DNA from: a virus
DNA length: 30,441 nucleotides
Virus record (IMG/VR): IMGVR_UViG_3300007352_000398
Direction: 5' to 3' (one strand)
Under the pieces are notes generated by a model that did no database searches, was not told the DNA's origin, and saw only the letters and a program-made list of their open reading frames with translations. A program made the position numbers and the translations under genes. Positions 1 through 30,441 of this stretch are shown piece after piece; within the stretch, counting starts at the first letter, position 1; the number at the start of each line of letters is the position of its first letter.

Positions 1-152
1 TCAGACCGTTCCCATTGTTGGATGAGAGGTAACAAATTCTGTACTACATTTTGAGTGACCCCAGGATGTCCTTGGACTGATTGCATCTGCCCAACCATGT
101 TAGCTATTTGCTGGAGTGCCGCAACTTTTTGGTGTTCTGCTGCTGTTAACAT
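1..152 (-). CDS. Hypothetical protein, 5' part only (runs off the left edge): MLTAAEHQKVAALQQIANMVGQMQSVQGHPG...
   Basis: Not in the ORF track. ATG at 152 on the minus strand, frame open to the window edge, preceded by AAATGTTACAAT (170-159) 6 nt upstream. Confidence 0.6.
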   Translation of the reverse strand, partial: MLTAAEHQKVAALQQIANMVGQMQSVQGHPGVTQNVVQNLLPLIQQWERS

Positions 153-174
153 AGTTGTATTGTAACATTTAGAA

Positions 175-203
175 TTGAAACAAATTTATCTGACTCATAT
201 CAT
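175..203 (+). promoter_or_regulatory. Sigma70-like promoter predicted to give a leaderless Thg1 mRNA
   Basis: TTGAAA (175-180), 17-nt spacer, TATCAT (198-203), then 6 nt to ATG 210. Confidence 0.6.
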
Positions 204-209
204 AGCACT

Positions 210-998
210 ATGAGTGCAGATAATCTTGGCGATAGAATGAAGTCTTACGAAGCGGCTTTTGATTTTACGCTTCCTCAGCAATTACCATTGATTCTCAGAT
301 TAGATGGTAGGGCGTTTCACAGTTTTACGCGCAGAATTAAATTAGCACGACCTGTCGATGAAATTTTTCACCAGGCAATGGTAAAAACTACAATTACTTT
401 GTGCGAAGAAATCTCAAATGCTCGATTTGGGTATACACAAAGTGATGAAATTTCTATCCTTATTTATCCAAAGTACTTTACTTCTGATCCCTGGTTTGGA
501 AATCGTTTACAGAAAATGATTTCAGCTAGTGCCAGTCTAGCTAGCATAACTTTTGTGCAAGAATTACTGGCGGGCCCCTATGCTGACCGCCTTAAACAAA
601 TTAACAATATACCAACGTTCGATTCACGAATATTCATTGTACCTGCGCATGATGTAAACAACGTATTTTTGTGGCGACAACGCGATGCTTCAAAAAATTC
701 TGTAAGTATGTTTGCTGAACATCATTTAAACAGAACCACTATAGAAAATAAAAATACAACTGAAAGAATACAAATGCTATTGGACATTGGAGTAGACTGG
801 AATGCACTGCCATCATGGCAGCGAATAGGAACGGGAGTTATTAAAGAATTCTTTTCTACCGAAATCGCTGAAAACGATGGCTCTGTTAAAACTGTTATTC
901 GGACCAGATGGTCACCAATTGAGTTAAAAGATTTTTATCAAGATTCCTCACAAATTAATAAATTTTTAACTATACCCACAATGAAAACTGACAGTTAG
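210..998 (+). CDS. tRNA(His) guanylyltransferase Thg1 / Thg1-like protein (3'-5' nucleotidyltransferase)
   Basis: Family motifs LGDRMKSYE, RLDGRAFHSFT, YTQSDEISI, FDSR, WRQRDA..NS. Confidence 0.93.
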   Translation: MSADNLGDRMKSYEAAFDFTLPQQLPLILRLDGRAFHSFTRRIKLARPVDEIFHQAMVKTTITLCEEISNARFGYTQSDEISILIYPKYFTSDPWFGNRLQKMISASASLASITFVQELLAGPYADRLKQINNIPTFDSRIFIVPAHDVNNVFLWRQRDASKNSVSMFAEHHLNRTTIENKNTTERIQMLLDIGVDWNALPSWQRIGTGVIKEFFSTEIAENDGSVKTVIRTRWSPIELKDFYQDSSQINKFLTIPTMKTDS

Positions 999-1067
999 CC
1001 TTGCACTCCCTAGTTAACCTGTTACAGTCCATGTAGGAGTTAAAATCGGTCAACGGTTAGAGGTTTT

Positions 1068-1454
1068 ATGGAAACTACTATTAGCGTTATTCCTCAGGAA
1101 ACAATCGAAATCGCGGTTTCCGCCCCTCCCACTAAAACTGTATCATTTGAAATTGGTAGTACCTATTATCGAAGTAATACTTACTATATAGGAATCGGAG
1201 CTAATAAAGTATTAACTGTTCGGAAGCAAAAAGAATATTGTGTTAAACCGCGGGTTAATTATCGCTCTGTATGGATCAGTGTTGAAGACCTCTGTAAACT
1301 GTGGAAACTTTCAATCGAAGAATTTGACGCATTACTCGAAAAGTATATTAAACCCATTCGGCTACCCAATACTCGGTTAGGTAGCCGGAAAAAAGCAATC
1401 GACCCGCAGGAGTTTATTCGTGCGGTTCGATTACACCGTTTAGCTCAGATTTAA
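1068..1454 (+). CDS. Hypothetical protein
   Basis: 128-aa ORF with GAGGT Shine-Dalgarno (SD). The stop overlaps the convergent gene's stop. Confidence 0.7.
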   Translation: METTISVIPQETIEIAVSAPPTKTVSFEIGSTYYRSNTYYIGIGANKVLTVRKQKEYCVKPRVNYRSVWISVEDLCKLWKLSIEEFDALLEKYIKPIRLPNTRLGSRKKAIDPQEFIRAVRLHRLAQI

Positions 1455-1768
1455 CGACGGCGGGCGCGACGATTACGGCGAGCCTTGCGGCCTCTACGAG
1501 CTTTACGGGATTTTCTTGCTAGACGCTTCAGTTTGCGCGCGGCCTTCCGAACAATGCCGGGGAGCCTAACGCGGCCTGTAGAAACGAGCCAACTAGCTGC
1601 GGCTCCGGCGACGCCTGCGCCAAGAACCCACTTCCACGGCACTGCACCAAGACCCTCGCCATAATCAGCGAAGCTGCTCCCACAGGGTGAACAACCGCGC
1701 ATATCTTGCGGCTGCTTTAAGGCGACACGTTGAATAAAAGCCGCCAACTGACGAGTAGATAGATCCAT
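1451..1768 (-). CDS. Small membrane-associated protein with a protamine-like Arg/Lys C-terminal tail
   Basis: ATG 1768 follows a GAGGT SD and is preferred over TTG 1780. Hydrophobic stretch WKWVLGAGVAGAAASWLV, then RKARRGRKARRNRRARRR. Confidence 0.75.
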   Translation of the reverse strand: MDLSTRQLAAFIQRVALKQPQDMRGCSPCGSSFADYGEGLGAVPWKWVLGAGVAGAAASWLVSTGRVRLPGIVRKAARKLKRLARKSRKARRGRKARRNRRARRR

Positions 1769-1806
1769 AATTAACCTCAAAAATATTGTAACAAAAAAAG
1801 AGATAA

Positions 1807-2076
1807 TTAATTCAAATCTCGTTTATCAAAAATTTGCAATGCTTCATACTTGGGATACCAATAATAACTAAGACAAACCAAATATTTAGAATACAAAGAA
1901 TCCCATGCGGTTTTAATATATGGAATCTCTATATAATAGGTTGCATCGATCAAATACTCAATTCGCTCACTAAGCTTTAAAAGCTCAGCTGCTATGTAAG
2001 ATAGTCCAATACAGTCATTTTGGAAATACCCCTCAATTCGCATAAAGTCAGCTAACAAGGACTTATAGACATCCAC
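1807..2076 (-). CDS. Hypothetical protein
   Basis: 89-aa ORF with a GTG start 6 nt after TAAGAT. Confidence 0.6.
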   Translation of the reverse strand: MDVYKSLLADFMRIEGYFQNDCIGLSYIAAELLKLSERIEYLIDATYYIEIPYIKTAWDSLYSKYLVCLSYYWYPKYEALQIFDKRDLN

Positions 2077-2131
2077 GACTAAATCTTACATAGTTTTTTA
2101 ACAAACACAACAGTTTTGTTAAAATGCATGA

Positions 2132-2596
2132 ATGGATAAAAGACTGTATTCACATCTTTATCAGGCAATTAATATGAATAAGTTTCCTGGTGAAACGCCA
2201 TTGCCCGGCAAAACTGTGGCTCAACAGGCAAAAGCAGTCGATTATCAAGACATCCCACGAGATATTCAAGCTATGCGGGAAGCAACCTACAATCGTGAAG
2301 TTAAGAGAGGAGAATTTGTGCCAGAATTTTCAGGGACTAAGAAGTCAAGTCTAGGATCTTACTTAGGAGACGCAGCTAAGAAGACTATGCCTGGAGTGTT
2401 ACTCGTTGCAACGCTTTTTGCAGCTTACTATCTATTTTTCCGTAAGAATCCCGATGAAGAGGTTGAAAGCATTGAAGAAGTCGAAATTGAAGACGATTTA
2501 GAGCCAGAGGACACTAGCGAGGAGTTTGATGGGGCTGGAGATGTGGAACCAGAACCAATAGTTACATCGAGCTATCGGCGTCGTCGGCACTTTTAA
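2132..2596 (+). CDS. Single-pass membrane protein with an acidic tail ending RRRRHF
   Basis: Hydrophobic GVLLVATLFAAYYLFF followed by RK, then an E/D-rich region. TTTTGTTAAAAT lies 6 nt upstream of the ATG. Confidence 0.75.
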   Translation: MDKRLYSHLYQAINMNKFPGETPLPGKTVAQQAKAVDYQDIPRDIQAMREATYNREVKRGEFVPEFSGTKKSSLGSYLGDAAKKTMPGVLLVATLFAAYYLFFRKNPDEEVESIEEVEIEDDLEPEDTSEEFDGAGDVEPEPIVTSSYRRRRHF

Positions 2597-2634
2597 ATAA
2601 TTGACTTATAATTTCTAATCACTACACTTAGTGA

Positions 2635-3804
2635 ATGCGATTATTATTTGCTTCACTTTTATGTCATCGCGATGTTAAAGTCTGGACTTTTAACTGGTTT
2701 TGTGGTCGAATTCATTTAGACCACGGATTTGATATCCCACATTTGATTCTAAACGATGGATCACTGACGACTGAAGATATTGAATTTTTAAATTCTTTAC
2801 CCAAAGTTTGGGTGGATAAAGACCCAATTCATCTATATAATGTTCCAAAACCGCAACTGTTTGGAAAACTTCAATGTTTAGAACGTGGTTTTAAAAAGTA
2901 TGGTGCAGATCGGGTGGTCGTCTTTGATGGTGATATCTTTTTTTATAAAAACTGGGATTCAGAAGTAAGAAAAATTTGCACATCAGAAGCTATTGCTATG
3001 CGCGATTGGGGGAGTAGTCTAGGCCCACACCCCCGTGAATATAAACAATTATTCGGGGTCTACGAAGACAACATCACTCATAACTGCAACACGGGAATTT
3101 TTTCTATTGTCAAAGAAAAATGGTCGCAATTAGAAGCCATTATGCACAAATATATAAACACTCCGTTTAATATTATGGATGACCAAGGTTGTCTATTTGC
3201 AGCATTCTACGGTGAATTGCAGTACATAAATAACATCAAATGTATTGTAAATGGGGCCGAATTTATCCCTGAATTATGGCAGTGGGTACTAAGACAAAAA
3301 GGTTCTCATCTTCAAGGTATGCGTGTCAGACAACATGGCTTTAACTCGCTTGTTCAGCACTCCCTAGAAAATTTGCCGGATAAACTAATGTTACAGCAAA
3401 TAGAACCTCATAAGAAGCACATTAGTTTTGGATTAATGGAACACGACACCTACAATTTTGACTCTCCTTGGCACACATATCCCACACGATGTAAAGGAGT
3501 TTATATAACTGACGCAATTTATATGCACGGAGGATCGTGGGCGGAGTGGCATCTTGATAAACGTTTTACAAAATTCACGGCGCGGGTTGATTGCATGGAT
3601 ACTGGCATCAGAGAAAATGCAAAACCAGTGACTATTAATGGAAAGACATTCCCGATGGGAGAACAGATAGAAACTCTCCTAGAAGGTAAACTATTGATAG
3701 AAACTCAAGATGGCCCTGGCGCGCATATTGTATTTATAGAACCGCGCCTATTTATCAGTAAGCATCTACCGGATGTGGGAGATCTGTTTGTCAACCCCAA
3801 TTAA
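2635..3804 (+). CDS. GT-A fold glycosyltransferase (GT8-like) with an extra C-terminal beta-rich domain
   Basis: DxD motif VVVFDGDIFF, NCNTGIF and DDQG motifs typical of GT8-like enzymes. The C-terminal domain is unassigned. Confidence 0.65.
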   Translation: MRLLFASLLCHRDVKVWTFNWFCGRIHLDHGFDIPHLILNDGSLTTEDIEFLNSLPKVWVDKDPIHLYNVPKPQLFGKLQCLERGFKKYGADRVVVFDGDIFFYKNWDSEVRKICTSEAIAMRDWGSSLGPHPREYKQLFGVYEDNITHNCNTGIFSIVKEKWSQLEAIMHKYINTPFNIMDDQGCLFAAFYGELQYINNIKCIVNGAEFIPELWQWVLRQKGSHLQGMRVRQHGFNSLVQHSLENLPDKLMLQQIEPHKKHISFGLMEHDTYNFDSPWHTYPTRCKGVYITDAIYMHGGSWAEWHLDKRFTKFTARVDCMDTGIRENAKPVTINGKTFPMGEQIETLLEGKLLIETQDGPGAHIVFIEPRLFISKHLPDVGDLFVNPN

Positions 3805-4672: not shown

Positions 4673-4764
4673 TGCTATCTTCATAATGGAAAATAGCTAC
4701 TCGCCAAAATTTTTAACAATCTTCATACAATTGCAGAAAAGACTTCGCAAGTTATACTTTTGTC

Positions 4765-5505
4765 ATGAAAAAACGAATTAAACGTTCAATAATTTGGAAA
4801 CTCCCTTTGAACGAATTTAAAAGGCTTGTCATAGATTCCAAAACATTTACAGAAATCTTACAATTTTTTGACCTACCAGCAAAAGGCGGTAACATCAACA
4901 CCCTTAAACGTCGCATAATAGAAGAAGGCATAGATTTCTCTCACATTGCGTCTGGTTTAAATGCGAATAAAGGAAAAAAATTAAATAAGCTTCCAACCAT
5001 CACTGAAGCACTAGTCAATGGCAGTAAAATTAAAAATAGCACGCTTAAAAAGATACTACTTACCAATGGATTACTAAGTGAAAAGTGCTACATATCTGGC
5101 TGTCCGGTTCAATCTCCGATTTGGAATGGTAAACCAATAACATTGATACTTGATCACATTAATGGAATACGTGACGATAATCGTCTTGAAAATTTAAGAT
5201 TAGTTTGTCGTAATTGTGACGGTCAATTACCGACATTTGCAGGAAGGAATAAGCGCAATCCACGCAAAAATTGTGTAATATGTGGTCGCACAATTAATCA
5301 ACACAATAAAACTAATCATTGCAAACCATGTCAAAATAAACAACCACGTCCTGAGCGACGCAAAACTGTGCATCCTGCAGCTGAAGTGCTTAAGGCAGAA
5401 ATAGATTCCTTAGGTTATTCTGCTGTTGGTCGTAAATATAATGTATCGGACAATGCAGTTCGAAAATGGATTAATCAGGACTCGAATATTGACCATCCTC
5501 ATTAG
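4765..5505 (+). CDS. HNH endonuclease with C-terminal Zn-ribbon and HTH (tRNA-adjacent, homing-endonuclease-like)
   Basis: LILDHINGIRDDNRLENLRLVCRNCDGQ, CxxC...CxxC, YSAVGRKYNVSDNAVRKW. Confidence 0.88.
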   Translation: MKKRIKRSIIWKLPLNEFKRLVIDSKTFTEILQFFDLPAKGGNINTLKRRIIEEGIDFSHIASGLNANKGKKLNKLPTITEALVNGSKIKNSTLKKILLTNGLLSEKCYISGCPVQSPIWNGKPITLILDHINGIRDDNRLENLRLVCRNCDGQLPTFAGRNKRNPRKNCVICGRTINQHNKTNHCKPCQNKQPRPERRKTVHPAAEVLKAEIDSLGYSAVGRKYNVSDNAVRKWINQDSNIDHPH

Positions 5506-5543
5506 AATTTCTATTGATCCATCAATTAAATATAGTAATTTAC

Positions 5544-5571
5544 TTGACATATACAAAATATTGTATATAAT
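5544..5571 (+). promoter_or_regulatory. Consensus sigma70-type promoter of the tRNA cluster
   Basis: TTGACA (5544-5549), 16 nt, TATAAT (5566-5571), 12 nt upstream of tRNA-Glu. Confidence 0.75.
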
Positions 5572-5583
5572 AGCCTTCACAAA

Positions 5584-5656: not shown

Positions 5657-5678
5657 GTAAAAATCGCGCAATGCGCGT

Positions 5679-7529: not shown

Positions 7530-8639
7530 CTATTCTGCCAAATCTATATCGTATGAATTAAGCATTTCATCTAATTGTGCCGCAAGTCTATTAGCTTCGT
7601 TGGTCATAGACGACATATAACGTTGAGTCGTCGCCAAAGATTGATGTCCCAATCGAGCGCGGATCTCCTCAGCAGAGGCTCCTGCTTTCAAGTAAGACTC
7701 AGCATGCAAATGGCGTAAAGAGTGGACAGAAATTTTAGTTGGATCTAATCCTGCTTTTTTAGCTAACTTTTTCATTATTCTAAGCATTGATCGTTGTGCT
7801 AAAGGTTGGTTAGGATCGACTAATTGTCGTGCCCCTCCCTTCCCCGGGATTGCAGTAAATAGATAAGTTTCAGGTAAAATTTTTTTATTAAAGTCAGCCC
7901 CCCATCGTTTTGTCAAATAAGCGATTAAATGCTCTTGTAACTTTTCTGGTAACTCATCGTTCATCTCTTTTTGACCTTTTCTAATAAATGAGTATGTTGG
8001 TGGGTTTCTATTAAAGTTAAGATTTTTCCATTGTAACTGTAACCACTCCGAATTTCGGCGTCCTGTAACAAAGTATCCATATATCAGACAAAAATCCCTC
8101 AATCCGTTTAATGTTTTAGTGTTAATTTGAGCTAATATTTTATTTAACGACTCAATACTTATTTTTTTTGATCGACTATATTTTTCTACAGCCACACGTT
8201 GATGTAATGCATCGACTGGATTAATTGCAACCAACGGAGGACTGCCGTCCAAGCCAGGTTTTTGCAAAAACTTATAAAAAGCAGAAATAATACTTATCTT
8301 ATTTTGGAGTGAAGCCTTTTCATGCGGAACGCACGCTTGGGTTGACCCTCCTGGAAGAACACCTCCGACACCTCCGGTCAATTCTAAATCAGTTTTCCAC
8401 AACAAAATGTCGGCACCAATTGCATTTAAAGGAGTTATTTGAGTTACATTGCGTAAAAATCTAACAAAGTGATCGATGACAATTTTATAATGGCGTTTAG
8501 TGTTTTCGTTACTAAGTGATAACAAGTAATAACAGTAGGCAGTTAAAAAGAGATCCTCTGGTTTAAAACTCTTGTCTAATCGGGAGGGATGCAGATTCCT
8601 TGCGTACAGTTGTTGAGCTATTTGCATATGATTTGGCAT
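7530..8639 (-). CDS. Tyrosine recombinase/integrase (XerC/D-like)
   Basis: LRD...TGRRNSE (Arg I), RKG, HSLRH, LGHQSLATTQRY catalytic residues, with an N-terminal SAM-like region. Confidence 0.92.
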   Translation of the reverse strand: MPNHMQIAQQLYARNLHPSRLDKSFKPEDLFLTAYCYYLLSLSNENTKRHYKIVIDHFVRFLRNVTQITPLNAIGADILLWKTDLELTGGVGGVLPGGSTQACVPHEKASLQNKISIISAFYKFLQKPGLDGSPPLVAINPVDALHQRVAVEKYSRSKKISIESLNKILAQINTKTLNGLRDFCLIYGYFVTGRRNSEWLQLQWKNLNFNRNPPTYSFIRKGQKEMNDELPEKLQEHLIAYLTKRWGADFNKKILPETYLFTAIPGKGGARQLVDPNQPLAQRSMLRIMKKLAKKAGLDPTKISVHSLRHLHAESYLKAGASAEEIRARLGHQSLATTQRYMSSMTNEANRLAAQLDEMLNSYDIDLAE

Positions 8640-8713
8640 GCAGTAATTTTATCACGTCCCGTTCAAGAGTTGCAGATTGAAACTTATTAACTAATATTCA
8701 ATTAGGAATAAAA

Positions 8714-10036
8714 ATGAGTATTGATGTCATGTACCGTCTCAGTCCCGAAGAAGTTGAACGTCAGTTAACAGAAATCATCGGTAACGCAAATTTAGATGAA
8801 ATTTTACTCGACAGAGAGCGGGTAAAACGTTTAAATTTTGAAGTTGGTGAGTTCGTGCAAGGACGCGTTGTTATCATTAGAAACGATCATGTTTATGTAG
8901 ACCTCAGTGCAAAGGAGGAAGGCCGTCTTAACTACTTTGAAGACGGATTCGTCAATGATGACCTTGATGTGGGGGACGAAGCCACATTTTTAGTTACAGC
9001 CGTTTCACCAGAAGGCACTATTCAATTATCAAGAAAAAATGTTGAAACACTCTTGCATGAGCGTGAAATATTAGCAACCCTCCAAACTGGAGACGTTGTA
9101 ACTGGCACCCTGATTCAAAACAGTAAAAATGGGTGGATTGTTGATATAAACGGACTTAAAGCATTTCTGCCGTCGAGTCAAGAATTTTTAGTCATTCCAA
9201 ACGAGGGTGTAGAAACTTTAATTGGAACAATTATTGAAGCTGAGGTAGATTCAATTGAGAATAATTCTGTTACATTGACAAGAAAAGCATTTGCTTCACA
9301 AATTAAACGCGCAACCAAAGCCAATTTTATAGCTCAACTACAAGTGGCTGACATTGTTCCTGGTACTATTAAAAACTTAACAGATTTTGGTGTATTCATT
9401 CAAATAGCCCCCGGAATAATCGGTTTTTGTCATGTTTCCGACGCCGGCAAACAACAACTAGAACCTGGACAACAAGTTAAGTGCCGTATACTAAAAATTG
9501 ATCGCGAAAAGAATAGAATTTCATTGGGACTAAAACAGGTGACAGAACCTACTTGGACTGAAATTATCAGTAAGTACAATATTGATGATAAAGTTGTTGC
9601 GACTGTTAAATCGATAGTTCCATATGGTGCATTTTTAGAGATTGAACCCGGCATTAGTGGTTTAGTACATGTCAGTGATTTGAGCTGGTCTGACCACATT
9701 AAACACCCCAAAGAAGTGTTGAAGGAGGGCGAAAAAGTCGAGGTAGTCATTTTAAGTATTGATCCAGATAAACAACATCTATCCCTGGGTTTGAAGCAGG
9801 TCAGCGCAGATCCATGGGAAGGTGTAACAAATAAATACTTTATTGGTCAATCCCTGCCGGGCCGAGTTGTAAGTAAATTAAAATTTGGAATTTTTATCGA
9901 ACTTGAAAAGGGATTAGAGGGTTTAGCCCATCACACTGTTAAATCAAAAAATTTGAAGATTAATGATTTGACTGATGTGACGATTCTAAGAATCGATGTT
10001 GGTCGTAAGAAAATATCGTTAGCCATTGAGGATTAA
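8714..10036 (+). CDS. rpsA: 30S ribosomal protein bS1 homolog with five S1 repeats
   Basis: Repeats with AFLPSSQ, GTIKNLTDFGVF, RISLGLKQ, YGAFLEIEPGISGLVHVSDLSW, DPWE..KY, FGIFIELEKGLEGL. AGGA SD upstream. Confidence 0.92.
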   Translation: MSIDVMYRLSPEEVERQLTEIIGNANLDEILLDRERVKRLNFEVGEFVQGRVVIIRNDHVYVDLSAKEEGRLNYFEDGFVNDDLDVGDEATFLVTAVSPEGTIQLSRKNVETLLHEREILATLQTGDVVTGTLIQNSKNGWIVDINGLKAFLPSSQEFLVIPNEGVETLIGTIIEAEVDSIENNSVTLTRKAFASQIKRATKANFIAQLQVADIVPGTIKNLTDFGVFIQIAPGIIGFCHVSDAGKQQLEPGQQVKCRILKIDREKNRISLGLKQVTEPTWTEIISKYNIDDKVVATVKSIVPYGAFLEIEPGISGLVHVSDLSWSDHIKHPKEVLKEGEKVEVVILSIDPDKQHLSLGLKQVSADPWEGVTNKYFIGQSLPGRVVSKLKFGIFIELEKGLEGLAHHTVKSKNLKINDLTDVTILRIDVGRKKISLAIED

Positions 10037-10056
10037 ACTTTTGCTACAATTAAGCC

Positions 10057-10686
10057 ATGTTTGGATTTTTTGGAAAAGGTGCAATGGTTCCAGCCCCGGT
10101 GGCTTTAGTAGATCAAGCGCAACCTATGCCAACAGAAATGCCTCTTCTACCAGAGGAACCAGAATTAGAACCACTGCCTCCCGAGCCTCTTTTAACTGAA
10201 ACAGATATAATTCAAGAACAAATAGCCAAACTGCGCGCAGCAGTTGAAGCGAAGAAAGCTTCTAAAGAAGCGCAAATTAAAGCCGTACAAGATACGCAGA
10301 AAAAGCAGGCGGCTTATGGCCGAGATGTTCTTCAATTACGCCCGGAAAAGTCGGGTTATGCAACCGAATCAGAAAAAATAATGGGCGGACAAACTGGTTA
10401 TTCCAAATCTTTAGGTTCAGTTTCCGATGAAGAACTTACATCCGTCGCAACTGATGTACACCAAGCAACTTTGTTAGTGCAGCAACTTACAAAGGACGTT
10501 AAAGCCGGGGTTGCATCGAAATCAGAACTCAAGCGTGCTTTACAAGCTCTGCAGGAAAAATCAGATCAAGCTAAACAATTGGCCTCAGAATTAAGTGGTT
10601 TTGACTTAAGTAATTGGAAACACAAACTAATTGTTTTAATTATGTCTGCGACTGTAATTTATTTAGTCTTTAGACACTTCCGCTAA
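10057..10686 (+). CDS. Coiled-coil protein with a C-terminal membrane anchor
   Basis: Pro-rich N-terminus, helical Q/K/A core, LIVLIMSATVIYLVF-RHFR terminus. TTTTGCTACAAT lies 6 nt upstream. Confidence 0.78.
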   Translation: MFGFFGKGAMVPAPVALVDQAQPMPTEMPLLPEEPELEPLPPEPLLTETDIIQEQIAKLRAAVEAKKASKEAQIKAVQDTQKKQAAYGRDVLQLRPEKSGYATESEKIMGGQTGYSKSLGSVSDEELTSVATDVHQATLLVQQLTKDVKAGVASKSELKRALQALQEKSDQAKQLASELSGFDLSNWKHKLIVLIMSATVIYLVFRHFR

Positions 10687-10705
10687 CTTTGTTAGAATAA
10701 CAGCG

Positions 10706-11059
10706 ATGACTAAAAAGGTCTCACCTCTCGAACTACTTGTGGCTGCACATGCAGCAGATCCGCTACCTCCAGTCAAAATAATCCCAAAAAACAGATTTCC
10801 TTCAGAAATCACTTTGATTGAAGATTACCCCGAATCCTCTATTCAACCGACAGCAGTTACAAATAATTTAACAATTAATGTCAGTATGAACTTCGATAAA
10901 GAAACTCTTAATCAAGCCCTTCAAAAATCAGCCGAGGTAGCAAAAAATATCGCGGCGGTGGGTGCCGCATTTATTGGAACAGCGATGATGCTCAGTGGAA
11001 AAAAATTAGAAAAAGTTAAAATCCCACTTACCCCAAAAATAAAGGTCCCGCGAATTTAA
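10706..11059 (+). CDS. Hypothetical protein with a hydrophobic segment and basic tail
   Basis: IAAVGAAFIGTAMMLSG followed by a K-rich end. CTTTGTTAGAAT lies 7 nt upstream. Confidence 0.7.
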   Translation: MTKKVSPLELLVAAHAADPLPPVKIIPKNRFPSEITLIEDYPESSIQPTAVTNNLTINVSMNFDKETLNQALQKSAEVAKNIAAVGAAFIGTAMMLSGKKLEKVKIPLTPKIKVPRI

Positions 11060-11514: not shown

Positions 11515-11868
11515 TCACCGAGGAGGGGTTCCAGTGTCACCGGAGTCACTTGGATTTATTATTAGCCGGCTTCCAGTTTCTTCTGTTGAGAGTCCCATTT
11601 TCTTTTTGGCCTCCCAAGCTTCAACGTCTGGTGGCAATGGCTCGTTATTTAAAGCAAAGTTCTGTGCGTGCCACGCTCGTCTACATGCCCTAATAAAATT
11701 CTGTTCCTGTTCACGCGTGCTAATGCCAGCATTCATTAACGTTAAAAAATTATCGCATAACTGAGCGTTATTAGCAGCGTTTGTTTTAGCCTCTTCTGGA
11801 ACTGTAAAAAAGGCACAGCCACTAACAGATAATGTTAGCACTAAAACAAGAATTTGAAGAAATTTCAT
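11515..11868 (-). CDS. Putative lipoprotein
   Basis: Signal peptide MKFLQILVLVLTLSVSG|C with a lipobox Cys. Confidence 0.75.
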   Translation of the reverse strand: MKFLQILVLVLTLSVSGCAFFTVPEEAKTNAANNAQLCDNFLTLMNAGISTREQEQNFIRACRRAWHAQNFALNNEPLPPDVEAWEAKKKMGLSTEETGSRLIINPSDSGDTGTPPR

Positions 11869-11932
11869 AAATTAATGATAGTCAATTGTTAATAGCGATG
11901 TCAAACAAAGGAATTTTGTTAAACTAATGTAT

Positions 11933-12682
11933 ATGTTCCGGCACTATAATCCTACCGTTAACTGGAATCCGACCATAACAGATTTCTCTGTTCAAAATCT
12001 TAACAAAGTATCCTTTTTTGACTCAGTCGCCAAAGCACGAGCTTTCCTGCTACAAGTCTCTTGTTTATCCAAGCAGCAATTAAACGAACCATCTTTGCAA
12101 GCGAAGATATCAGCTGCAGAAAAAATTATAGCACGCGCCGATAAACGAAATGCGCGACGCCGCCGCCGCAGGCAAGAAAAACGCGGCCTTTCTGCCTCTG
12201 GAGCCGAGTGCTTAGATGCAATTGCTGAGGCGAGGCAAGCATGTGGGCCTAACGTTGTTTGTTATTCAGAGACAAACAATAAAAAAGTATTAACACCTCC
12301 AACCCCGCAGTACTTCGGCCCAAACTGGGAAGAAGTTCTCGGCCCTAAAGGTGAGGTTATAAAGTTTAAGATAGAATACTACAAAACTGGTCCTGATCAA
12401 GGAACTATTAAAAACAGAACCCGCTCAAAAGCCTCCCCAAAACCAGGGGACATAATTCTTGATTTAACTTCTGGGCTTAAAGCGTGGAAAGTTACCACAA
12501 GTGGTAAGCGGACTCCGATTACTCCGACGCGTACGATGGAAGATGAATATAAAAATTCATATTTGTACAAAGTCCGGCAATTGGCTGCGGGTCAAATATC
12601 AACAGCGCAATTTGCTGATTTCCTTAAACAACCAGTCGCTGCAAAAAAGAGAAACCTTAAGCGTCATAAAAAGAAAAAATGA
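11933..12682 (+). CDS. Basic hypothetical protein
   Basis: RRRRR tract and KKRNLKRHKKKK terminus. ATG 11933 (7 nt after TTTTGTTAAACT) is preferred over 11927. Confidence 0.72.
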   Translation: MFRHYNPTVNWNPTITDFSVQNLNKVSFFDSVAKARAFLLQVSCLSKQQLNEPSLQAKISAAEKIIARADKRNARRRRRRQEKRGLSASGAECLDAIAEARQACGPNVVCYSETNNKKVLTPPTPQYFGPNWEEVLGPKGEVIKFKIEYYKTGPDQGTIKNRTRSKASPKPGDIILDLTSGLKAWKVTTSGKRTPITPTRTMEDEYKNSYLYKVRQLAAGQISTAQFADFLKQPVAAKKRNLKRHKKKK

Positions 12683-12728
12683 TGAAAAATACCAAAAAAT
12701 GTTATACTAATTGCGAGGAGTCTATATA

Positions 12729-14320: not shown

Positions 14321-14535
14321 TATTCATCTTCTTTTTTGAATCCAGACTTTCGTCGATTGCGCTGTGCCTTTCGCAATTCACGCCGTTTAACATCACTAGG
14401 TTTTTCATATCGCTCACGTGCACGGCACTCTTTTCTAATTCCCGCTTTCTCACACATTTTTTTAAAGCGACGTAATGCCTTTTCAATGTTTTCGTCTTTC
14501 CCTACAACAACTTTAACTCGTGCTTCGCGTGCCAT
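14320..14535 (-). CDS. rpsU: 30S ribosomal protein bS21
   Basis: ENIEKALRRFKK..EKAGI..E.R.RERYEKPS..RR. AAGGAG SD, and the start is coupled to the upstream stop (TAATG). Confidence 0.93.
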   Translation of the reverse strand: MAREARVKVVVGKDENIEKALRRFKKMCEKAGIRKECRARERYEKPSDVKRRELRKAQRNRRKSGFKKEDE

Positions 14536-16591: not shown

Positions 16592-16647
16592 ATGCACAGT
16601 ATAAAGAATCATCTAGACACTACAATCAAGTGGACTAAACTAATATA

Positions 16648-18274: not shown

Positions 18275-18286
18275 TATAATAGTTCT

Positions 18287-18481
18287 ATGAGTTATCAATG
18301 GTGGGCACTACTTATTTTTGGAATATATGCAGGGTACCACCTCAAGGTCTTAGCTAGTAAGGATCCAAAAAGCACACTCGTCGGCCTCGATAGTGGAGTG
18401 ATTATTGGATCCCTTCTTTATTTTATCGGTCGTATTATTCAATTAAATCAAGAAGCGTCTAAATCATTAGAAAAAAAGTAG
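18287..18481 (+). CDS. Small two-helix membrane protein
   Basis: Two hydrophobic segments. TATAAT lies 6 nt upstream of the ATG. Confidence 0.6.
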   Translation: MSYQWWALLIFGIYAGYHLKVLASKDPKSTLVGLDSGVIIGSLLYFIGRIIQLNQEASKSLEKK

Positions 18482-20257: not shown

Positions 20258-21532
20258 TTACGATTTAAATTCAACAAGCCATTTCAAATTACACTGGCTA
20301 ATTCTATAGACAATCATTTCATTATTCACGACACTCGACTGTCCGGCTTTGGCAAAACATGAATCGTAGCCTTTAGGAATAGATTGCACTGAATGAGATG
20401 GGATATAATACTTGCCCATTCCAACATCTGCTAAGAACATGTAGCATATATTATCCCGCGACCCACCGTCCCAATATCCATAAGAATAATTCAAACTTTT
20501 CGTACTTTGATCAGAAAAATAGGCTCCGTTACCAAACATTCTACCGGTTACATGCGCAGCATTGGCAGAAGGAATTACTAACCCAGACTTTAAAATTGAA
20601 AGTAGATTAGCGGCTCGGGTGCCATGCCAGAGTTCCCAAATGTTGGAAAGTTTCGCTCCATCATTTTCAAATGCATTTCGCATTGTTTTGATATCGACTG
20701 CGTAGACATTTGCAACACGAAGGTGACTTGAAGCATGCCTATTTTGCAGTGTAGCGCGATAAAGATCGTTTATTCGTGAAATTTGTTTTTTATCATCAAG
20801 CAAAACTAGTTCGACGTTAAAGACTTCCTCTTCATGACCTGCGTCATCGACAACCGGTCTCGAAGCGATTGTTTTAAGAGTAGACTCCATTGAATCAATT
20901 AATGCAGCTTGTCGTTGAATATCGCTATCAGATGTAATAAAAGATTTTTCCCAACCACGACGAGCACCGACTTTTTGGGGAACACACATCAAATATTCAT
21001 TGATATTCTGAATAAATATCTGGGAGTCAATATCCTTCTTATTAATGCAAGTAGAAATAAGAACTAGATGTTTACGTGCGCGATCAAGTGTTTCTTGTGT
21101 TACAGCAACCCCCAAGTCGGTCTTGATAAGACCGCTGGAATCAACAGTAAGCCTGCCTCCGGAGGCAGTAGTAATGTCGTGCCGATTAACTTTGACAAGA
21201 AAATCAATCAACTGATCAACGAGAGGTGAGTTATGTTTAATTTGTTTTTTAGCAACAGTTTTTAATGCAGACCCGTCTACTTTAGAAGTAACAGCACATG
21301 GAGCATCAACAACCTGCATCTCCTTATACCCTTTTTTCTGTTTCTCACGAATTTTGCTATCGATATACTTTTGTCCGACACCAGGAAATGTTTTTGATTG
21401 TCCATCTGCTCCGACTCTCCCCCATCTACAAAGGACATCATTTGTGTCGAACAGTGTAGCCTCCCAAAATTTGTTATTGTTATCCTCGACAGAGGTGAGA
21501 ACTAACATCCGCTTGCTGACTATGGTGGCCAT
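20258..21532 (-). CDS. Poly(ADP-ribose) polymerase-like protein (WGR, helical region and PARP catalytic domain)
   Basis: NNNKFW..WGRVG..KGY WGR domain. Catalytic H-Y-E in LWHGTR, GRMFGNGAYF, NNEMIVY. ATG 21532 lies 6 nt after TATAAT. Confidence 0.92.
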   Translation of the reverse strand: MATIVSKRMLVLTSVEDNNNKFWEATLFDTNDVLCRWGRVGADGQSKTFPGVGQKYIDSKIREKQKKGYKEMQVVDAPCAVTSKVDGSALKTVAKKQIKHNSPLVDQLIDFLVKVNRHDITTASGGRLTVDSSGLIKTDLGVAVTQETLDRARKHLVLISTCINKKDIDSQIFIQNINEYLMCVPQKVGARRGWEKSFITSDSDIQRQAALIDSMESTLKTIASRPVVDDAGHEEEVFNVELVLLDDKKQISRINDLYRATLQNRHASSHLRVANVYAVDIKTMRNAFENDGAKLSNIWELWHGTRAANLLSILKSGLVIPSANAAHVTGRMFGNGAYFSDQSTKSLNYSYGYWDGGSRDNICYMFLADVGMGKYYIPSHSVQSIPKGYDSCFAKAGQSSVVNNEMIVYRISQCNLKWLVEFKS

Positions 21533-21607
21533 TCCTTCATTATAGGCGTATGGCCAAACTAGCAATAGTAAATGCAATTAATGCATCATGTTATGTATAA
21601 TATCATC

Positions 21608-21778
21608 ATGCGTCACACATTTGCCGATCCAGCCACAGTCACATCAACCTCTCCGTCAGTCTCCCCCTCGGACAAAGCGTCAGCAATATTAAATGAAGCA
21701 ACGAGTAAACTTAAAAAGCTGATACTAATTATCGTCCTACTGAGTGCGGGCCTAATACTTTACAAAAAAATGTCCTAA
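21608..21778 (+). CDS. Small C-terminally anchored membrane protein
   Basis: KLKKLILIIVLLSAGLILYKK. ATG 21608 lies 6 nt after TATAAT. Confidence 0.62.
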   Translation: MRHTFADPATVTSTSPSVSPSDKASAILNEATSKLKKLILIIVLLSAGLILYKKMS

Positions 21779-23040
21779 AAATAAACCTCTACGCGCTTCT
21801 TAATTATTTGTTTACGTTCAGGGCCAATAGATAACCAAGTAATAGGAGTGCATAACTCATCTTCTACGAAAGAAACATATTCTTTAATCTCATTTGGAAA
21901 ATCGTCCCATGTTTTAATACTTTGAGAGCTAATTTTAGGGAAAGGCGCAAATTCCTTATAAACCGGTGTTACACAACTCCAATCAAAGAATCGCGAATCC
22001 CTCTGATAATCAATTGCTATCTTCAATGGCTCTATCTCGAATAAAGAATCAAGCTTAGTCATTACTAATTCATCGGTTTCAGTCAAAGCAACAGCATGTT
22101 TTAGTTGATACAAATCTAACCAACCACAACGTCTTGGACGACCAGTGGTTGCGCCGTACTCACTTGCTTGCTCACGTAACCGTGCCGCAAGATCTGTTGG
22201 CATTTCTGTGGGAAAAGGACCAGTGCCTATTCTTGTGGTATAGGCTTTAACCACTCCAACAACATTTTCTACTTCAGAAAGTGGTACGCCCATACTTTGG
22301 GTAATTGCAGTGGTTAAAGTGCTAGTAGACGTAACATAAGGATATGTACCCTGATTAATATCGAGCATCACCCCTTGGGCACCCTCAAATAATATTCTCT
22401 TGCCACTGCCGTATAACTCCCTTTCAACGTCAACCACATATGGATCAAGACGTTCTTTAAACGACATCAGCTCCTTGAATATTTCATCGGGACACAACTT
22501 AGTTGACTCTTGATACCCACTGATGATTGCTTGCTTTTCAATTACATTTACTTCGATGAGTTCGCGTAACCGTTTTTCGTTATACAAATCAACTATTCTT
22601 ATTCCAAATCGGGAAACAAAATCAGCATAACATGGGCCAATCCCACGCTTTGTTGTCCCTATTTTTTCAGTCTTAGCTTCACGAATAGTGTCGATTATTT
22701 TGTGATAAGGCAAAATAAGATGGCATAGATGACTTATCTTAAGATGCGAACAATCAACACCAAGAGTAGTTAACTCATCTATTTCTTTAAATAAAGAGGG
22801 TAGATCAACAATTACTCCGCTACCTATTATGGGAATAACCGTTTTTGTTAAAATACTTGAGGGAATTATGTGTAATACATATTTATGCCCATCAACAATA
22901 ACTGTGTGTCCCGCATTAGGGCCACCATTAAATCGCGCAACGCAATCAAAGTTGGGCGCAAATATATCTAATATCTTCCCTTTGCCCTCATCCCCCCACT
23001 GTAATCCGATAACAGCCGCATGATTTGTTGGTATTCGCAT
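21775..23040 (-). CDS. purA: Adenylosuccinate synthetase
   Basis: GLQWGDEGKGK, GGPNAGHT, IGTTKRGIGP, FEGAQG, GTYPYVTS, EYGATTGRPRRCGWLD. Confidence 0.97.
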   Translation of the reverse strand: MRIPTNHAAVIGLQWGDEGKGKILDIFAPNFDCVARFNGGPNAGHTVIVDGHKYVLHIIPSSILTKTVIPIIGSGVIVDLPSLFKEIDELTTLGVDCSHLKISHLCHLILPYHKIIDTIREAKTEKIGTTKRGIGPCYADFVSRFGIRIVDLYNEKRLRELIEVNVIEKQAIISGYQESTKLCPDEIFKELMSFKERLDPYVVDVERELYGSGKRILFEGAQGVMLDINQGTYPYVTSTSTLTTAITQSMGVPLSEVENVVGVVKAYTTRIGTGPFPTEMPTDLAARLREQASEYGATTGRPRRCGWLDLYQLKHAVALTETDELVMTKLDSLFEIEPLKIAIDYQRDSRFFDWSCVTPVYKEFAPFPKISSQSIKTWDDFPNEIKEYVSFVEDELCTPITWLSIGPERKQIIKKRVEVYF

Positions 23041-23066
23041 GTCTGCATGGTAAACAGCAAGCTTAT

Positions 23067-23726
23067 TCAGTCAACTAAGACTAGTTTAACTTTTTTAATA
23101 CCGGCCATCCACGGCTTGTCTATATCACCTAACCAATCGCTTAGTGTAGGAATTTTTTGGTATGTTCTTAGCACATGCTGCTCCGCAACCTCTCTAGTTG
23201 CAACTACACGCCCGCTGTTATTTAAAATAGATACACCAAAAATATCCTCAACAACATAGATACCAAAAGCATTGTGAAATATAACTCGACCGACACTGCC
23301 ATATTTAAGGGGGTCGTTCATTAACCGATGAATTTCTAAATAATCCTCGACCTTACCCCCAAAATTTTTTGCGCTAATTTCGGCATGTCGTTCACAATTT
23401 AATCCAGGGCGGGTTATCAGTTCATTATCGTGCTTAAATTCTGCTAACCAATCTGTTAATTTAGGCAAAAATCCCAAATCTTCTAAAATATGCTGCTTGG
23501 CCACATCCGTAGTTTCTACCTTCTTACCCTCAATATTTATAAGTTGCTTATCAAATATCCTACAAATAAGCTCAACTCCATAGTCAGAATGATAAATAAT
23601 ACGATGAGACATCTTAGGATGTGCGCTCTTTGATTGATCTATCTTGCAATGAATTTTTTGATAATCGGAAATAGCCCCGCCGAAGTGTCTAACACTGTTT
23701 TCAGCATGATAAACTGGTTTAGCCAT
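23067..23726 (-). CDS. Protein made of two tandem His-rich domains (DUF6915-like)
   Basis: Repeated HAE.S...FGG...DY..IH ... H...G ... VA.QH.L ... P.L.DWL units. Confidence 0.75.
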   Translation of the reverse strand: MAKPVYHAENSVRHFGGAISDYQKIHCKIDQSKSAHPKMSHRIIYHSDYGVELICRIFDKQLINIEGKKVETTDVAKQHILEDLGFLPKLTDWLAEFKHDNELITRPGLNCERHAEISAKNFGGKVEDYLEIHRLMNDPLKYGSVGRVIFHNAFGIYVVEDIFGVSILNNSGRVVATREVAEQHVLRTYQKIPTLSDWLGDIDKPWMAGIKKVKLVLVD

Positions 23727-24267
23727 GCTTTTCTTTCATTTGTGCGACCAAATTTCCTAGTTCATGAATTACGTGAAAATCAGCAGAATAAATTCTATCC
23801 AATCCCGCTGTCAAGGCTATGCATAGATCCCCGGACTCTTTTAAATACGTTGTCGTAAATTTATCAGCCATGTCAATTTCAAGCAAGTTGTCAATGCGAT
23901 CCAAAGCTTTTATGAATTTAATTGGCGTGGGTATTTGACTGAGACGATCAGCTTCTTTTGCTTTTCGCTCCTTGCGCGAAAGCGCAGGATATTTGGTTTT
24001 GGTAAATTCATTAGTCAACATTTCAACGTAAGTGGTGATCTTCTCTCCGAAAACATCAACCATTTCTTGTCGCGTAACCCCTGTATCTTCTAAGACATCA
24101 TGCATAAAGGCGGCAGCAACCAGCTCAGGAGTTGTGCATTCTAAAATCATAGTTCGTCCTGCGACTCTAGCAGGGTGGTATATATAAGGCAACGTATTAT
24201 ATTTACGCTTTTGAGTGCCATGAGCTTCTCGGGCGAAGGTTGCAGCAGTTAAAATAATATTATCCAT
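23719..24267 (-). CDS. HD-domain (p)ppGpp hydrolase-like protein (SpoT/MESH1-type small alarmone hydrolase)
   Basis: FAREAHGTQKRK, PYIYHP, AAFMHDVLEDT, IKALDRIDNL. Confidence 0.85.
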   Translation of the reverse strand: MDNIILTAATFAREAHGTQKRKYNTLPYIYHPARVAGRTMILECTTPELVAAAFMHDVLEDTGVTRQEMVDVFGEKITTYVEMLTNEFTKTKYPALSRKERKAKEADRLSQIPTPIKFIKALDRIDNLLEIDMADKFTTTYLKESGDLCIALTAGLDRIYSADFHVIHELGNLVAQMKEKHG

Positions 24268-24316
24268 AACAAGAGTATACAGTCTTAATAGCCTGTGTCA
24301 CTTTAAAAGTTTTTTA

Positions 24317-25027
24317 CTAATACGGACCAACCTGGGGCGTCGGTGTTGGAGCAAAATCTGGTGCTGGACTTTCATCTTTAGAAATGTGTGTTTGGTTACA
24401 AACCCAAGCATTTAGTAATTTAGCATCCATCAGCGTTGCATTTACAGCATTTGTACTGGCAGAAATACCAAAAAACCCAAAAGTAGCTGGATCAAGTTTA
24501 GCGTCTAAACGACTCGCCTGAGCCCCTGTGATAGCTGTGATAAATGTCGGCCCCCTATCGATTCCACCATTGAATTCTAGGTCAGAAATAACAATAATTG
24601 TCAAATCTTTAAATGCTAAGCTGGCATTCATTGATTTCAAAATTGCAGGTGCGACGTGTGTGGAACCGTTTTCTATCTCTATTGTTTCTAACCACTCCTT
24701 AATCGCCTGCACTGCTTCCTTTGACGGAAGGGCCGCCCAACCCTCAGGAAGTTTTTCATCTTTAACACCCTTCCACCGTTCACAGTTCCCTCCGAAAGCC
24801 ATTACTCCAACATTTAACTCATCCAGAGATTGAGAGGCGATGTTTACCACGGCTTGAATAGCGTCAGCGACTTGATCCGGCTTCATAGAAGCACTTTTAT
24901 CAACAACAAAGATAATATTTTTTTTAATTTGCCCTTGCTCTGGGGGAACCAACCAATTTATTTCTTGCGCTGCTCCACTAACTGAAAATCCCAATACCAT
25001 CGCCATCAAAATTAAAACAAACCGCAT
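24317..25027 (-). CDS. Secreted von Willebrand factor A domain protein
   Basis: Signal peptide, MIDAS IIFVVDKSASM, GST, IIVISD. Confidence 0.8.
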   Translation of the reverse strand: MRFVLILMAMVLGFSVSGAAQEINWLVPPEQGQIKKNIIFVVDKSASMKPDQVADAIQAVVNIASQSLDELNVGVMAFGGNCERWKGVKDEKLPEGWAALPSKEAVQAIKEWLETIEIENGSTHVAPAILKSMNASLAFKDLTIIVISDLEFNGGIDRGPTFITAITGAQASRLDAKLDPATFGFFGISASTNAVNATLMDAKLLNAWVCNQTHISKDESPAPDFAPTPTPQVGPY

Positions 25028-25084
25028 ATATTTATATTATTAAATCTGCAATGGATATTGCACTAAAATGTTATCATAATAAAT

Positions 25085-25369
25085 ATGCGATACTGGAGAG
25101 GGGTCCGAAGACCTGGCTTTTTAAGTGATTTAAGCGATACTTGGATGGATGATGCAACGACTAAGCGTCTCGCCAAACAGGACGCTAATATTCTAGAACA
25201 AGAACGAACTGATTATGTTGACACTGGCTCAGGGTCTGCTAGACCAGCACAGCTTCCTCGCCTAGCCAGCCCAGGAGCGGCTAGACTCTCATCGGAGAAC
25301 TTTTTACTCAAGCACGCAAAATGGTATGACCAATACCGTCGTAAAGTTCTATATGGAGCCGACGATTAG
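25085..25369 (+). CDS. Hypothetical protein
   Basis: 94-aa ORF with AAATGTTATCAT 7 nt upstream. Confidence 0.65.
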   Translation: MRYWRGVRRPGFLSDLSDTWMDDATTKRLAKQDANILEQERTDYVDTGSGSARPAQLPRLASPGAARLSSENFLLKHAKWYDQYRRKVLYGADD

Positions 25370-25870: not shown

Positions 25871-25900
25871 AACTCCTCAGCACAAGGGTATCACGCAACC

Positions 25901-26116: not shown

Positions 26117-26119
26117 GTC

Positions 26120-29128: not shown

Positions 29129-29137
29129 CACATCATC

Positions 29138-29175
29138 TACGCGGCATGGATGTTATTTTTCATCCATGCCGCGTA
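29138..29175. repeat. Perfect 15-bp inverted repeat (terminator-like hairpin)
   Basis: TACGCGGCATGGATG-TTATTTTT-CATCCATGCCGCGTA. Confidence 0.85.
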
Positions 29176-29186
29176 AATGTGTACCC

Positions 29187-29831
29187 ATGATAAGCACCCT
29201 CACTCATTACCCAGATAAACCGTGGACACAGGATCCTGTTCACATCAAGGAATGGGATGCTAAAGGAACATTTATCTGCCAACAAAAGGTCGATGGTTGG
29301 CGAGTAATTGTTATCCGCACGGAGACGGGTGTTGATTATATCTCCCGCCACAACAAGCCATTAACTGCGGACATTCAAAGTGAAATCAAGCAGGAAATCG
29401 ACTCACTCGATCTTCCAGTGGGGACACAGCTAGACACTGAATGGATAGCTCGTCGGTCTTGCAGTGTCGATTATAAGCTCCGACCAAAGCTCTACTTGTT
29501 GGATGTCCTTCGTTGGGGGAAAACTTGGTTGCTAAATACCCCCTTGGTCGAACGAGTAAAGAAGATCGACGCTCTTTTTCTTACAACACAGTTTCAATAT
29601 CTAGCGCGCGTAGATGAAGCCAAGCCCGGAGAATTCTGGACTTTTTGGCTGGCGCAGCAATCCATTCCCTACAGTGAAGGGGTCGTAATCAAACACAAAT
29701 TATCAAAGATCGTAGGTAATCGCAAAGAGTGTAAAAAGAACGACTTATGGATGAAAATTAAATGGAGGGGCGGTTCGAGTGGAGGCACACCTCTAGCCAG
29801 GTACCAGCAGATGCCGAAGGATGATGATTGA
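29187..29831 (+). CDS. ATP-dependent ligase-type nucleotidyltransferase (adenylation) domain without an OB domain
   Basis: Motif I QKVDGWR, SRH, III LDTEW, IIIa LLDVL, IV EGVVIK, V WMKIK. The start is set at ATG 29187 because the longer frame overlaps the upstream gene and the hairpin. Confidence 0.82.
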   Translation: MISTLTHYPDKPWTQDPVHIKEWDAKGTFICQQKVDGWRVIVIRTETGVDYISRHNKPLTADIQSEIKQEIDSLDLPVGTQLDTEWIARRSCSVDYKLRPKLYLLDVLRWGKTWLLNTPLVERVKKIDALFLTTQFQYLARVDEAKPGEFWTFWLAQQSIPYSEGVVIKHKLSKIVGNRKECKKNDLWMKIKWRGGSSGGTPLARYQQMPKDDD

Positions 29832-30034
29832 TTTCGCTCACATGTCAGTGTTGCGGTTTTACTGAGCAGTTTGCTGACGAGCAGACAGCTTTCCAAAAAG
29901 GCTGGGATACTCCATCAAGATTCTCCATCGTAACCTGTAATTGTTGTCCTAGCAGCAATATCTTACTAGGTGTGTCTCACAAAGAAGTGCATGATTGCTG
30001 GGCGCGAGAAGGGCGACCGCATAATGACAGCTAA
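29828..30034 (+). CDS. Small Cys-rich protein
   Basis: CQCC..CNCC, with the start overlapping the ligase stop. Confidence 0.55.
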   Translation: MISLTCQCCGFTEQFADEQTAFQKGWDTPSRFSIVTCNCCPSSNILLGVSHKEVHDCWAREGRPHNDS

Positions 30035-30311
30035 GAACGAAGAGACCAAAGAACCTGTAACCTCGGGCCAATTGGCAGAGCAACTTCTCAAAGTACTTCG
30101 TCGCCATCGCGATGATCCACACCTAAGCCGACTAGTTCATCTTATTGTTCGCCGCTTAGACGAAATTGAAAATAAATTCAATAGTCATTGCCATATCACA
30201 TCTACTAACATGCGAGGCAGCGAATATGAATCCGCTGGTAGCGGAAAAACAGGGCCTCCTGCCAAACCTGGCCCATTCGGCTGTCACCAAGATATTCGCA
30301 TTGGTAGTTGA
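30024..30311 (+). CDS. Hypothetical protein
   Basis: ATG 30024 (MTAKNEE) overlaps the end of the previous ORF. Confidence 0.55.
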   Translation: MTAKNEETKEPVTSGQLAEQLLKVLRRHRDDPHLSRLVHLIVRRLDEIENKFNSHCHITSTNMRGSEYESAGSGKTGPPAKPGPFGCHQDIRIGS

Positions 30312-30341
30312 ATCTTTGAAGCTTTCGACTACCATGGGCCA

Positions 30342-30441
30342 ATGGCCACTATTCTACCGAAAAAGTCTCTTGATGACGAAATCGCCATCCTTATCAAATG
30401 GGATGACGCCTACTATAATAATACTCCTTTAATCTCTGATT
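30342..30441 (+). CDS. ligA: Probable NAD-dependent DNA ligase, N-terminus only (runs off the right edge)
   Basis: Not in the ORF track. MATILPKKSLDDEIAILIKWDDAYYNNTPLISD resembles the LigA Ia domain pattern YY...P.ISD. Promoter TTGAAT-16-TACCAT ends 6 nt upstream. Confidence 0.6.
   Translation, partial: MATILPKKSLDDEIAILIKWDDAYYNNTPLISD

Follow-up and report, generated by a model that had tools for sequence, protein, structure and literature searches.

We analyzed a stretch of viral DNA of 30,441 nucleotides (nt), IMG/VR record IMGVR_UViG_3300007352_000398 (hereafter the window), which is part of a very large, uncultured, AT-rich virus-like element from an undescribed lineage. Many genes of this element are probably expressed from leaderless mRNAs that are transcribed from sigma70-type promoters abutting the start codons, with Shine-Dalgarno sites on other genes. 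The term leaderless is used here for a prediction from the sequence and covers leaders of 0 to 2 nt. According to this model many genes would each carry their own sigma70-type promoter, either TTGAca followed after about 16 nt by TAnaaT or an extended -10 element of the form TnTGnTAnaaT. RNA polymerase holoenzyme, either that of the host or one with an element-encoded sigma factor, would start the transcript at the AUG or within a base of it, and ribosomes would bind these mRNAs via the 5'-terminal AUG without Shine-Dalgarno pairing. The remaining genes would use a Shine-Dalgarno site, some of them inside operons and others behind minimal leaders of 8–16 nt. The point of transcription start, the identity of polymerase and sigma factor and the mode of ribosome binding are predicted features of this model. 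The architecture is of a known kind, found in a new kind of genome, and does not represent a new mechanism.

For each long open reading frame (ORF) the first possible start codon (ATG, GTG or TTG) was taken, without regard to the motif. Of the 42 longest-ORF starts in the window, 13 are preceded by a TAnnnT hexamer whose end lies exactly 6 nt upstream, whereas other offsets give 1.2 on average (binomial P 9e-11). A first-pass annotation of the window, made by a model from the letters alone, had listed 13 starts with this spacing and two more, 10706 and 25085, with a box 7 nt upstream. All of them read back correctly. Relatives were found via the lineage of a 440-amino-acid (aa) S1-domain protein encoded in the window: nine metagenome loci (L026–L034, ~150 kb) share 54–62% S1 identity and are syntenic with window positions 8.6–19.4 kb. 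In these loci pooled, the box stands at offset 6 in 49 of 206 starts, versus about 7 at other offsets (P 2e-27). The spacing is sharp: 49 starts have the box at 6 nt, but only 2 and 5 have it at 5 and 7 nt, respectively. The peak is present in each of the nine relatives, that is in 10 of 10 lineage loci when the window is included (~180 kb), and the leaderless-type layout is found in about 25% of all ORFs of the lineage sampled.

Ordinary bacterial S1 loci showed no peak, neither in 71 metagenome loci (offset-6 box in 19 of 796 starts) nor in 80 GTDB loci (32 of 1227 starts). One unrelated bacterial S1 locus, L052 (Ga0163144_10000801, 74 kb, 47% G+C), has TAnnnT at offset 6 in 4 of 22 starts and may derive from a leaderless-rich bacterium. 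No offset-6 peak was seen either in G001, a phage contig of 476 kb that served as composition-matched control (8 of 517 starts). This huge-phage-like contig (IMGVR_UViG_3300018080_008436, 39% G+C) was found via the PARP gene and was rejected as a relative, with only PARP, PNK and HNH in common. The WGR-PARP, PNK/phosphatase and HNH proteins are 41–46% identical between the two, and the leaderless architecture is absent in G001.

The hexamers are predicted to be -10 boxes of the sigma70 type. Position matrix and counts of promoter partners were derived from the 62 sites at offset 6 and compared with 186 other genes. The matrix shows T-12, A-11, a-9, A-8 and T-7 (consensus TAtaAT); 46 of the 62 sites have A at -8. 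Further upstream G is found at -14 in 65% of the sites and T at -15 and -17, corresponding to the extended -10 element TnTGnTAnaaT, and a weaker TTGA is visible at -34 to -31, equal to a 16-nt spacer. TG or a -35 TTG accompanies 49 of the 62 sites (79%), versus 13% of the other genes in the same register. TGn and -35 TTG seldom occur together at one site, as expected if either one suffices. The TTG trinucleotides that had been noted 16–18 nt upstream of several hexamers were found in 6 of 13 cases.

Counted from the A of the start codon as +1, the hexamer fills positions -12 to -7 exactly, which is the canonical register of a sigma70 -10 box relative to the transcription start. With the box in this position the transcript should start at the AUG or within a base of it. 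Transcription starts are known to favor a pyrimidine just before the first transcribed base and a purine as that base, and the flanks of the sites agree with initiation on the start codon: of the 62 sites, 48 carry T or C and a single one carries G at -1 (Fisher P 3e-4), and 61 have a purine at +1. The type of promoter that the element uses is shown by the predicted promoter of tRNA-Glu (5544..5571, + strand), which carries a perfect consensus of TTGACA, 16 nt and TATAAT, lies 12 nt before the tRNA and is the strongest consensus in the window. Where a putative promoter lies within the end of the upstream gene, TG or a -35 TTG is present in 18 of 19 cases. In three cases the upstream TGA stop codon itself forms the TGn of the extended -10 element, leaving an intergenic gap of exactly 12 nt (window 18272–18289; L030 near 5904, - strand; L033 near 18076, - strand).

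The genes behind an offset-6 box also differ from other genes in their translation signals. As the first-pass annotation had proposed for the genes that it listed, Shine-Dalgarno sites are missing from this class: tetramers occur in 1 of 62 offset-6 genes versus 53 of 186 others (P 6e-7), and in the latter their 3' ends fall most often at -13 to -10. The start codons of the 62 sites are ATG in 55, GTG in 6 and TTG in 1, and the share of ATG is 89% in this class versus 67% in other genes. Shine-Dalgarno-led genes often have their own -10 box only 14–23 nt upstream, most frequently 18 nt away. The leaders predicted for these genes, of about 8–16 nt, would be just long enough to hold the site.

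We then considered orthologues, whose starts were fixed by protein alignment and not by the motif. At aligned starts the 6-nt layout is kept while the letters of the hexamer and the sequence of the spacer vary. The box is present at the aligned start in 6 of 6 orthologues of 10706, 4 of 4 of 16591, 7 of 9 of the integrase (8639), 6 of 9 of 11868 and 3 of 3 of DinB; the window copy of DinB is operon-internal and its three orthologues are leaderless. The four orthologues of 16591 all begin with Met-Val-Ser aligned to residue 8 of the window protein, with the box at 6 nt, which supports GTG 16591 over the longer ORF. The families of 10057 and 11868 are leaderless in some elements of L026–L034 and in others have a -10 box followed by a 17-nt leader that contains AGGAG or GAGG. 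Such switches between a leaderless start and a short Shine-Dalgarno leader indicate that the two solutions interchange in evolution.

Several other explanations of the pattern have to be considered. That it stems from chance, A+T-richness or gene calling is conceivable, because an in-frame TAA or TAG at -12 makes the next ATG the start of the longest ORF, and 24 of the 62 hexamers do begin with an in-frame TAA or TAG. However, hexamers that cannot be stops (TA[CT]nnT) still peak at offset 6, both in the window (8 of 42 starts, P 1e-8) and in a second test (P 5e-19), and there is no peak at the remaining in-frame offsets (0, 3, 9, 12). A test free of gene calls was also positive: in the relatives an ATG stands exactly 6 nt after TGNTANNNT in 33 of 412 occurrences, versus about 7 at other offsets, and the controls were flat. 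Motif-to-start profiles of controls of equal G+C were flat as well. We therefore rejected this explanation, whose probability we regard as negligible. Very unlikely, though less remote, is the idea that TAnnnT at -12 to -7 is no promoter and acts as a translation signal in leadered mRNAs, that is as a non-Shine-Dalgarno or A/U-rich site for ribosome or S1 as in Bacteroidota. It would agree with the S1-like and S21-like proteins encoded by the element, with the box found in 21 of the 76 genes that closely follow another gene on the same strand, and with the reported scarcity of recognizable Shine-Dalgarno sites in huge phages that carry rpS1 (PMC7162821). A translation signal would leave unexplained why 18 of the 19 close-packed sites have TG or a -35 TTG, promoter features without a role in translation, and why the spacing is rigid to the base. 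Moreover, most operon-internal genes lack the box and have GGAG-type sites instead, and the bidirectional cassettes described below are explained by promoters.

If the promoters are real, transcription might still start a few bases off the A, giving leaders of 1–5 nt or transcripts that lose the first AUG and use a downstream codon. The choice of start site by sigma70 holoenzyme varies by 1–2 nt, and offsets of 5, 7 and 8 nt do exist (10706, 11933, 25085 and 15190, as well as several orthologues at 7 nt). We consider this unlikely in view of the sharp peak at 6 nt and of the pyrimidine at -1 and A at +1, which fit a start on the A; leaders of 1–3 nt would act as leaderless anyway. Leaderless mRNAs from abutting sigma70-type promoters thus remain the preferred explanation, and some points weigh against it. 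Predicted 5' structure and accessibility of the AUG do not differ between the leaderless class and other genes. The lineage sequence read comprises about 180 kb in 10 loci, including the window. Finally, crude automatic calls for the 100 genes with a divergent neighbour in the whole set gave 33–40 leaderless and 16 Shine-Dalgarno genes, and 44 that show neither signal. Spurious ORFs and misplaced starts are certainly among these 44 genes, which leave the leaderless share outside the window uncertain. Curated by hand, positions 1–25.4 kb hold about 28 units, of which about 20 are leaderless, 4 have a short Shine-Dalgarno leader and 3–4 are unclear; 5 of the ~20 leaderless units use starts picked by the rule, and 2 of these 5 are independently supported. 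The statement that most promoter-proximal genes are leaderless, made in the first-pass annotation, consequently holds for the window, while in the relatives the share can be put only at one third or more.

Within the window the predicted leaderless starts are laid out as follows. On the + strand the Thg1-like gene at 210 (175..212) is preceded by TTGAAA, 17 nt, TATCAT and 6 nt before the ATG. Start 2635 (2601..2637) has TTGACT, 16 nt, TACACT, 6 nt and ATG, and the HNH protein at 4765 (4731..4767) has TTGCAG, 16 nt, TATACT, 6 nt and ATG. Extended -10 elements are found at 10057 (10023..10059; TGcTACAAT, 6 nt, ATG), where four orthologues are leaderless and others combine a -10 box with a 17-nt leader holding AGGAG, and at 10706 (10671..10708; TGtTAGAAT, 7 nt, ATG), where the box stands at 6 nt in all six orthologues. 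At 18287 (18272..18289) the stop codon TGA of DinB provides the TGn of TGATATAAT, followed by 6 nt and ATG. On the - strand the integrase at 8639 (8637..8673) has TAAAAT, 6 nt and ATG, with the box 6–7 nt before the aligned start in 7 of 9 orthologues. PurA at 23040 (23038..23074) follows TTGACT, 16 nt, TACCAT and 6 nt, and the HD protein at 24267 (24265..24301) follows gTGACA, 16 nt, TATACT and 6 nt, both with ATG.

Three starts had been proposed from ORFs missing in the ORF list. Two of them have the box at 6 nt: 152 (150..186, - strand; TGtTACAAT, ATG), which is divergent to 210 at a distance of 57 nt, and 30342 (30308..30344, + strand; TACCAT, ATG). Both ORFs leave the window. The third, 15190, has its box at 8 nt and falls outside the 6–7 nt rule. 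The ORF at 30342 has a LigA-like N-terminus that is conserved in L030, L031 and L033, where the copies are not leaderless.

At six sites only 54–57 nt separate divergent start codons, a distance too short to hold leaders in addition to two promoters; the two -35 regions lie back to back. The pair 152/210 is of this kind. One such bidirectional cassette (2074..2134) combines 2076 (- strand; TAAGAT, 6 nt, GTG) with 2132 (+ strand; TGtTAAAAT, 6 nt, ATG), whose start codons are 55 nt apart. A second one (16589..16650), kept in L026 and L034, combines 16591 (- strand; TATACT, 6 nt, GTG) with 16648 (+ strand; TAAACT, 6 nt, ATG) at a distance of 56 nt. In a third (25025..25087) the start codons of 25027 (- strand; TAATAT, 6 nt, ATG) and 25085 (+ strand; TGtTATCAT, 7 nt, ATG) are 57 nt apart. 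Compact cassettes are also found in relatives (L026 10992/11050, L030 1750/1805 and L034 16551/16608), and the arrangement is thus conserved. Further divergent pairs are located at 11866..11935, with 11868 (- strand; TTGACA, 18 nt, TATCAT, 6 nt, ATG) and 11933 (+ strand; TGtTAAACT, 7 nt, ATG), and at 21530..21610, with the PARP gene at 21532 (- strand) and a 56-aa ORF at 21608 (+ strand), both having TATAAT, 6 nt and ATG. The product of the latter ORF (21608–21778) has a hydrophobic helix near its C-terminus with basic residues behind it, reminiscent of tail-anchored proteins. The internal starts that had been picked by the rule, 16591, 21532 and 21608 at 6 nt and 11933 at 7 nt, all carry the box; independent support was obtained only for 16591, from its orthologues, and for 21532, since PARP homology begins at residue 16, which corresponds to this codon.

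Genes of the short-leader class were analyzed as well. Gene 1768 (1766..1800, - strand) has TGTTACAAT, 16 nt containing GAGG and ATG 1768; an orthologue aligns from residue 5, and the TTG at 1780 that starts the longest ORF was rejected in favor of this ATG. Gene 12729 (12695..12731, + strand) has TGtTATACT, 20 nt with GAGGAG and ATG, and is conserved in six orthologues. The element also encodes its own S1-like (8714–10036, 440 aa) and S21-like (14320–14535) proteins, each behind a short Shine-Dalgarno leader. For the S1-like gene at 8714 (8680..8716, + strand) this consists of TAATAT, 16 nt with AGGA and ATG, with a Shine-Dalgarno site in 6 of 9 orthologues; some gene callers begin this protein 5 codons later, which yields 435 aa. 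The bS21-like gene at 14535 (14533..14565, - strand) has TGaTATCCT, 18 nt with AAGGAG and ATG.

The S1 protein also served to place the element. Its lineage has about 50 members at 50–65% identity; the largest contigs that carry them measure 859 and 938 kb, and one member bears the NCBI label 'Candidatus Parcubacteria'. The lineage was not found among the best 80 of 595 matches in 185,579 GTDB species genomes, all of which were at most 36% identical, and the GenBank phage set contained nothing close to it. Neither the S1 nor the DinB protein had matches in IMG/VR, and a literature search returned no description of this lineage of elements. Apart from the genes named so far, the window encodes a glycosyltransferase, AlkB-like, MT-A70, VWA and SNF2 proteins, ligases and two tRNAs, and with Thg1-like, HNH, integrase, S1, DinB, PNK/phosphatase, WGR-PARP, PurA and HD proteins this gene mix is typical of large mobile or viral genomes. 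PurA is full length (21775–23040), and the large contigs that carry the S1 lineage also encode its nearest relatives (46–49% identical). Among cellular proteins the nearest ones, about 45–47% identical, come from Planctomycetota, Omnitrophota and others, which gives no more than a weak hint at a host in Planctomycetota or Omnitrophota. An HD-domain gene and a DUF6915 gene follow downstream of PurA. The longest AlkB-like ORF overlaps tRNA-Arg at 6083–6160 and has no in-frame ATG nearby; the gene may be co-transcribed with the tRNAs. G+C content of the window is 39–41% up to about 25.4 kb and is followed by a segment of 52–57% (25370–29200) with SNF2 helicase and ligase-like genes inside the 39% G+C element. 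No abutting promoters were found in this segment (25.4–29.2 kb), which looks like a recent foreign insert.

The layout provides a rule for calling gene starts in an undescribed lineage of very large virus-like elements. Callers based on the longest ORF or on Shine-Dalgarno sites misplace starts such as 16591, 21532, 1768, 12729 and those of several orthologues. The elements appear to use standard sigma70-type promoters and not private polymerase signals, which narrows their mode of expression and the kind of host. Since the same gene can alternate between a leaderless start and a minimal Shine-Dalgarno leader, the lineage offers a natural system for studying the evolution of leaderless translation. 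A more far-reaching reading, which is possible but which we hold to be improbable, is that the leaderless layout forms part of a takeover of translation. Most messages would then be independent of the Shine-Dalgarno/S1 route, the element's own S1-like and S21-like proteins would be made from strong Shine-Dalgarno leaders, and after infection ribosomes would be remodelled or leadered translation of the host shut down, so that viral leaderless mRNAs are favored. If true, such a programme would be without precedent in a virus-like element of bacteria of about 0.9 Mb.

Among cellular genomes the closest counterpart is group C of GeneMarkS-2 (Mycobacterium, Streptomyces, Corynebacterium, Deinococcus), in which a Pribnow box lies 6–8 nt from the start and a dual model is applied; 25–50% of operons are leaderless in these genomes, which belong mostly to Actinobacteria and Deinococcus-Thermus (PMC6028130). 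As in group C, a TAnnnT box stands close to the start in a large share of the units described here and other genes have Shine-Dalgarno sites. The share itself is similar, with about 25% of all ORFs and at least one third of first genes. Group C genomes are however cellular and mostly of high G+C, whereas the present element is virus-like with 39% G+C. Its putative promoters also differ in being rich in the extended -10 TGn and in lying often in cassettes of 54–57 nt or in the end of the upstream gene. A literature search returned no report of leaderless mRNAs in bacteria of the Candidate Phyla Radiation.

In phages, the cI mRNA of lambda transcribed from PRM is the classic leaderless message (PMC10491246). 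It shares with the genes described here a sigma70-type promoter and a start at the A of the AUG, which is predicted in our case, but lambda has one regulated gene of this kind, as compared to about 20 genes in 25 kb here, with a layout that is conserved across a lineage. In jumbo phages, mapped transcription starts revealed no leaderless transcript in phiKZ (PMC8244752) and leaders of 26–491 nt in AR9 (PMC5312081). The element resembles these two phages in its very large genome with many separate promoters, although phiKZ and AR9 use their own RNA polymerases and motifs whereas consensus sigma70-type boxes are found here. Huge phages that carry rpS1 were reported by Al-Shayeb et al. in 2020 to show identifiable Shine-Dalgarno sites only rarely (PMC7162821). 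With its very large genome, S1-like and S21-like genes and many genes without a Shine-Dalgarno site, the element resembles such rpS1/rpS21 huge phages. That work reports the rarity of the sites only, whereas in the lineage described here the genes lacking them would be accounted for by promoters abutting their start codons.

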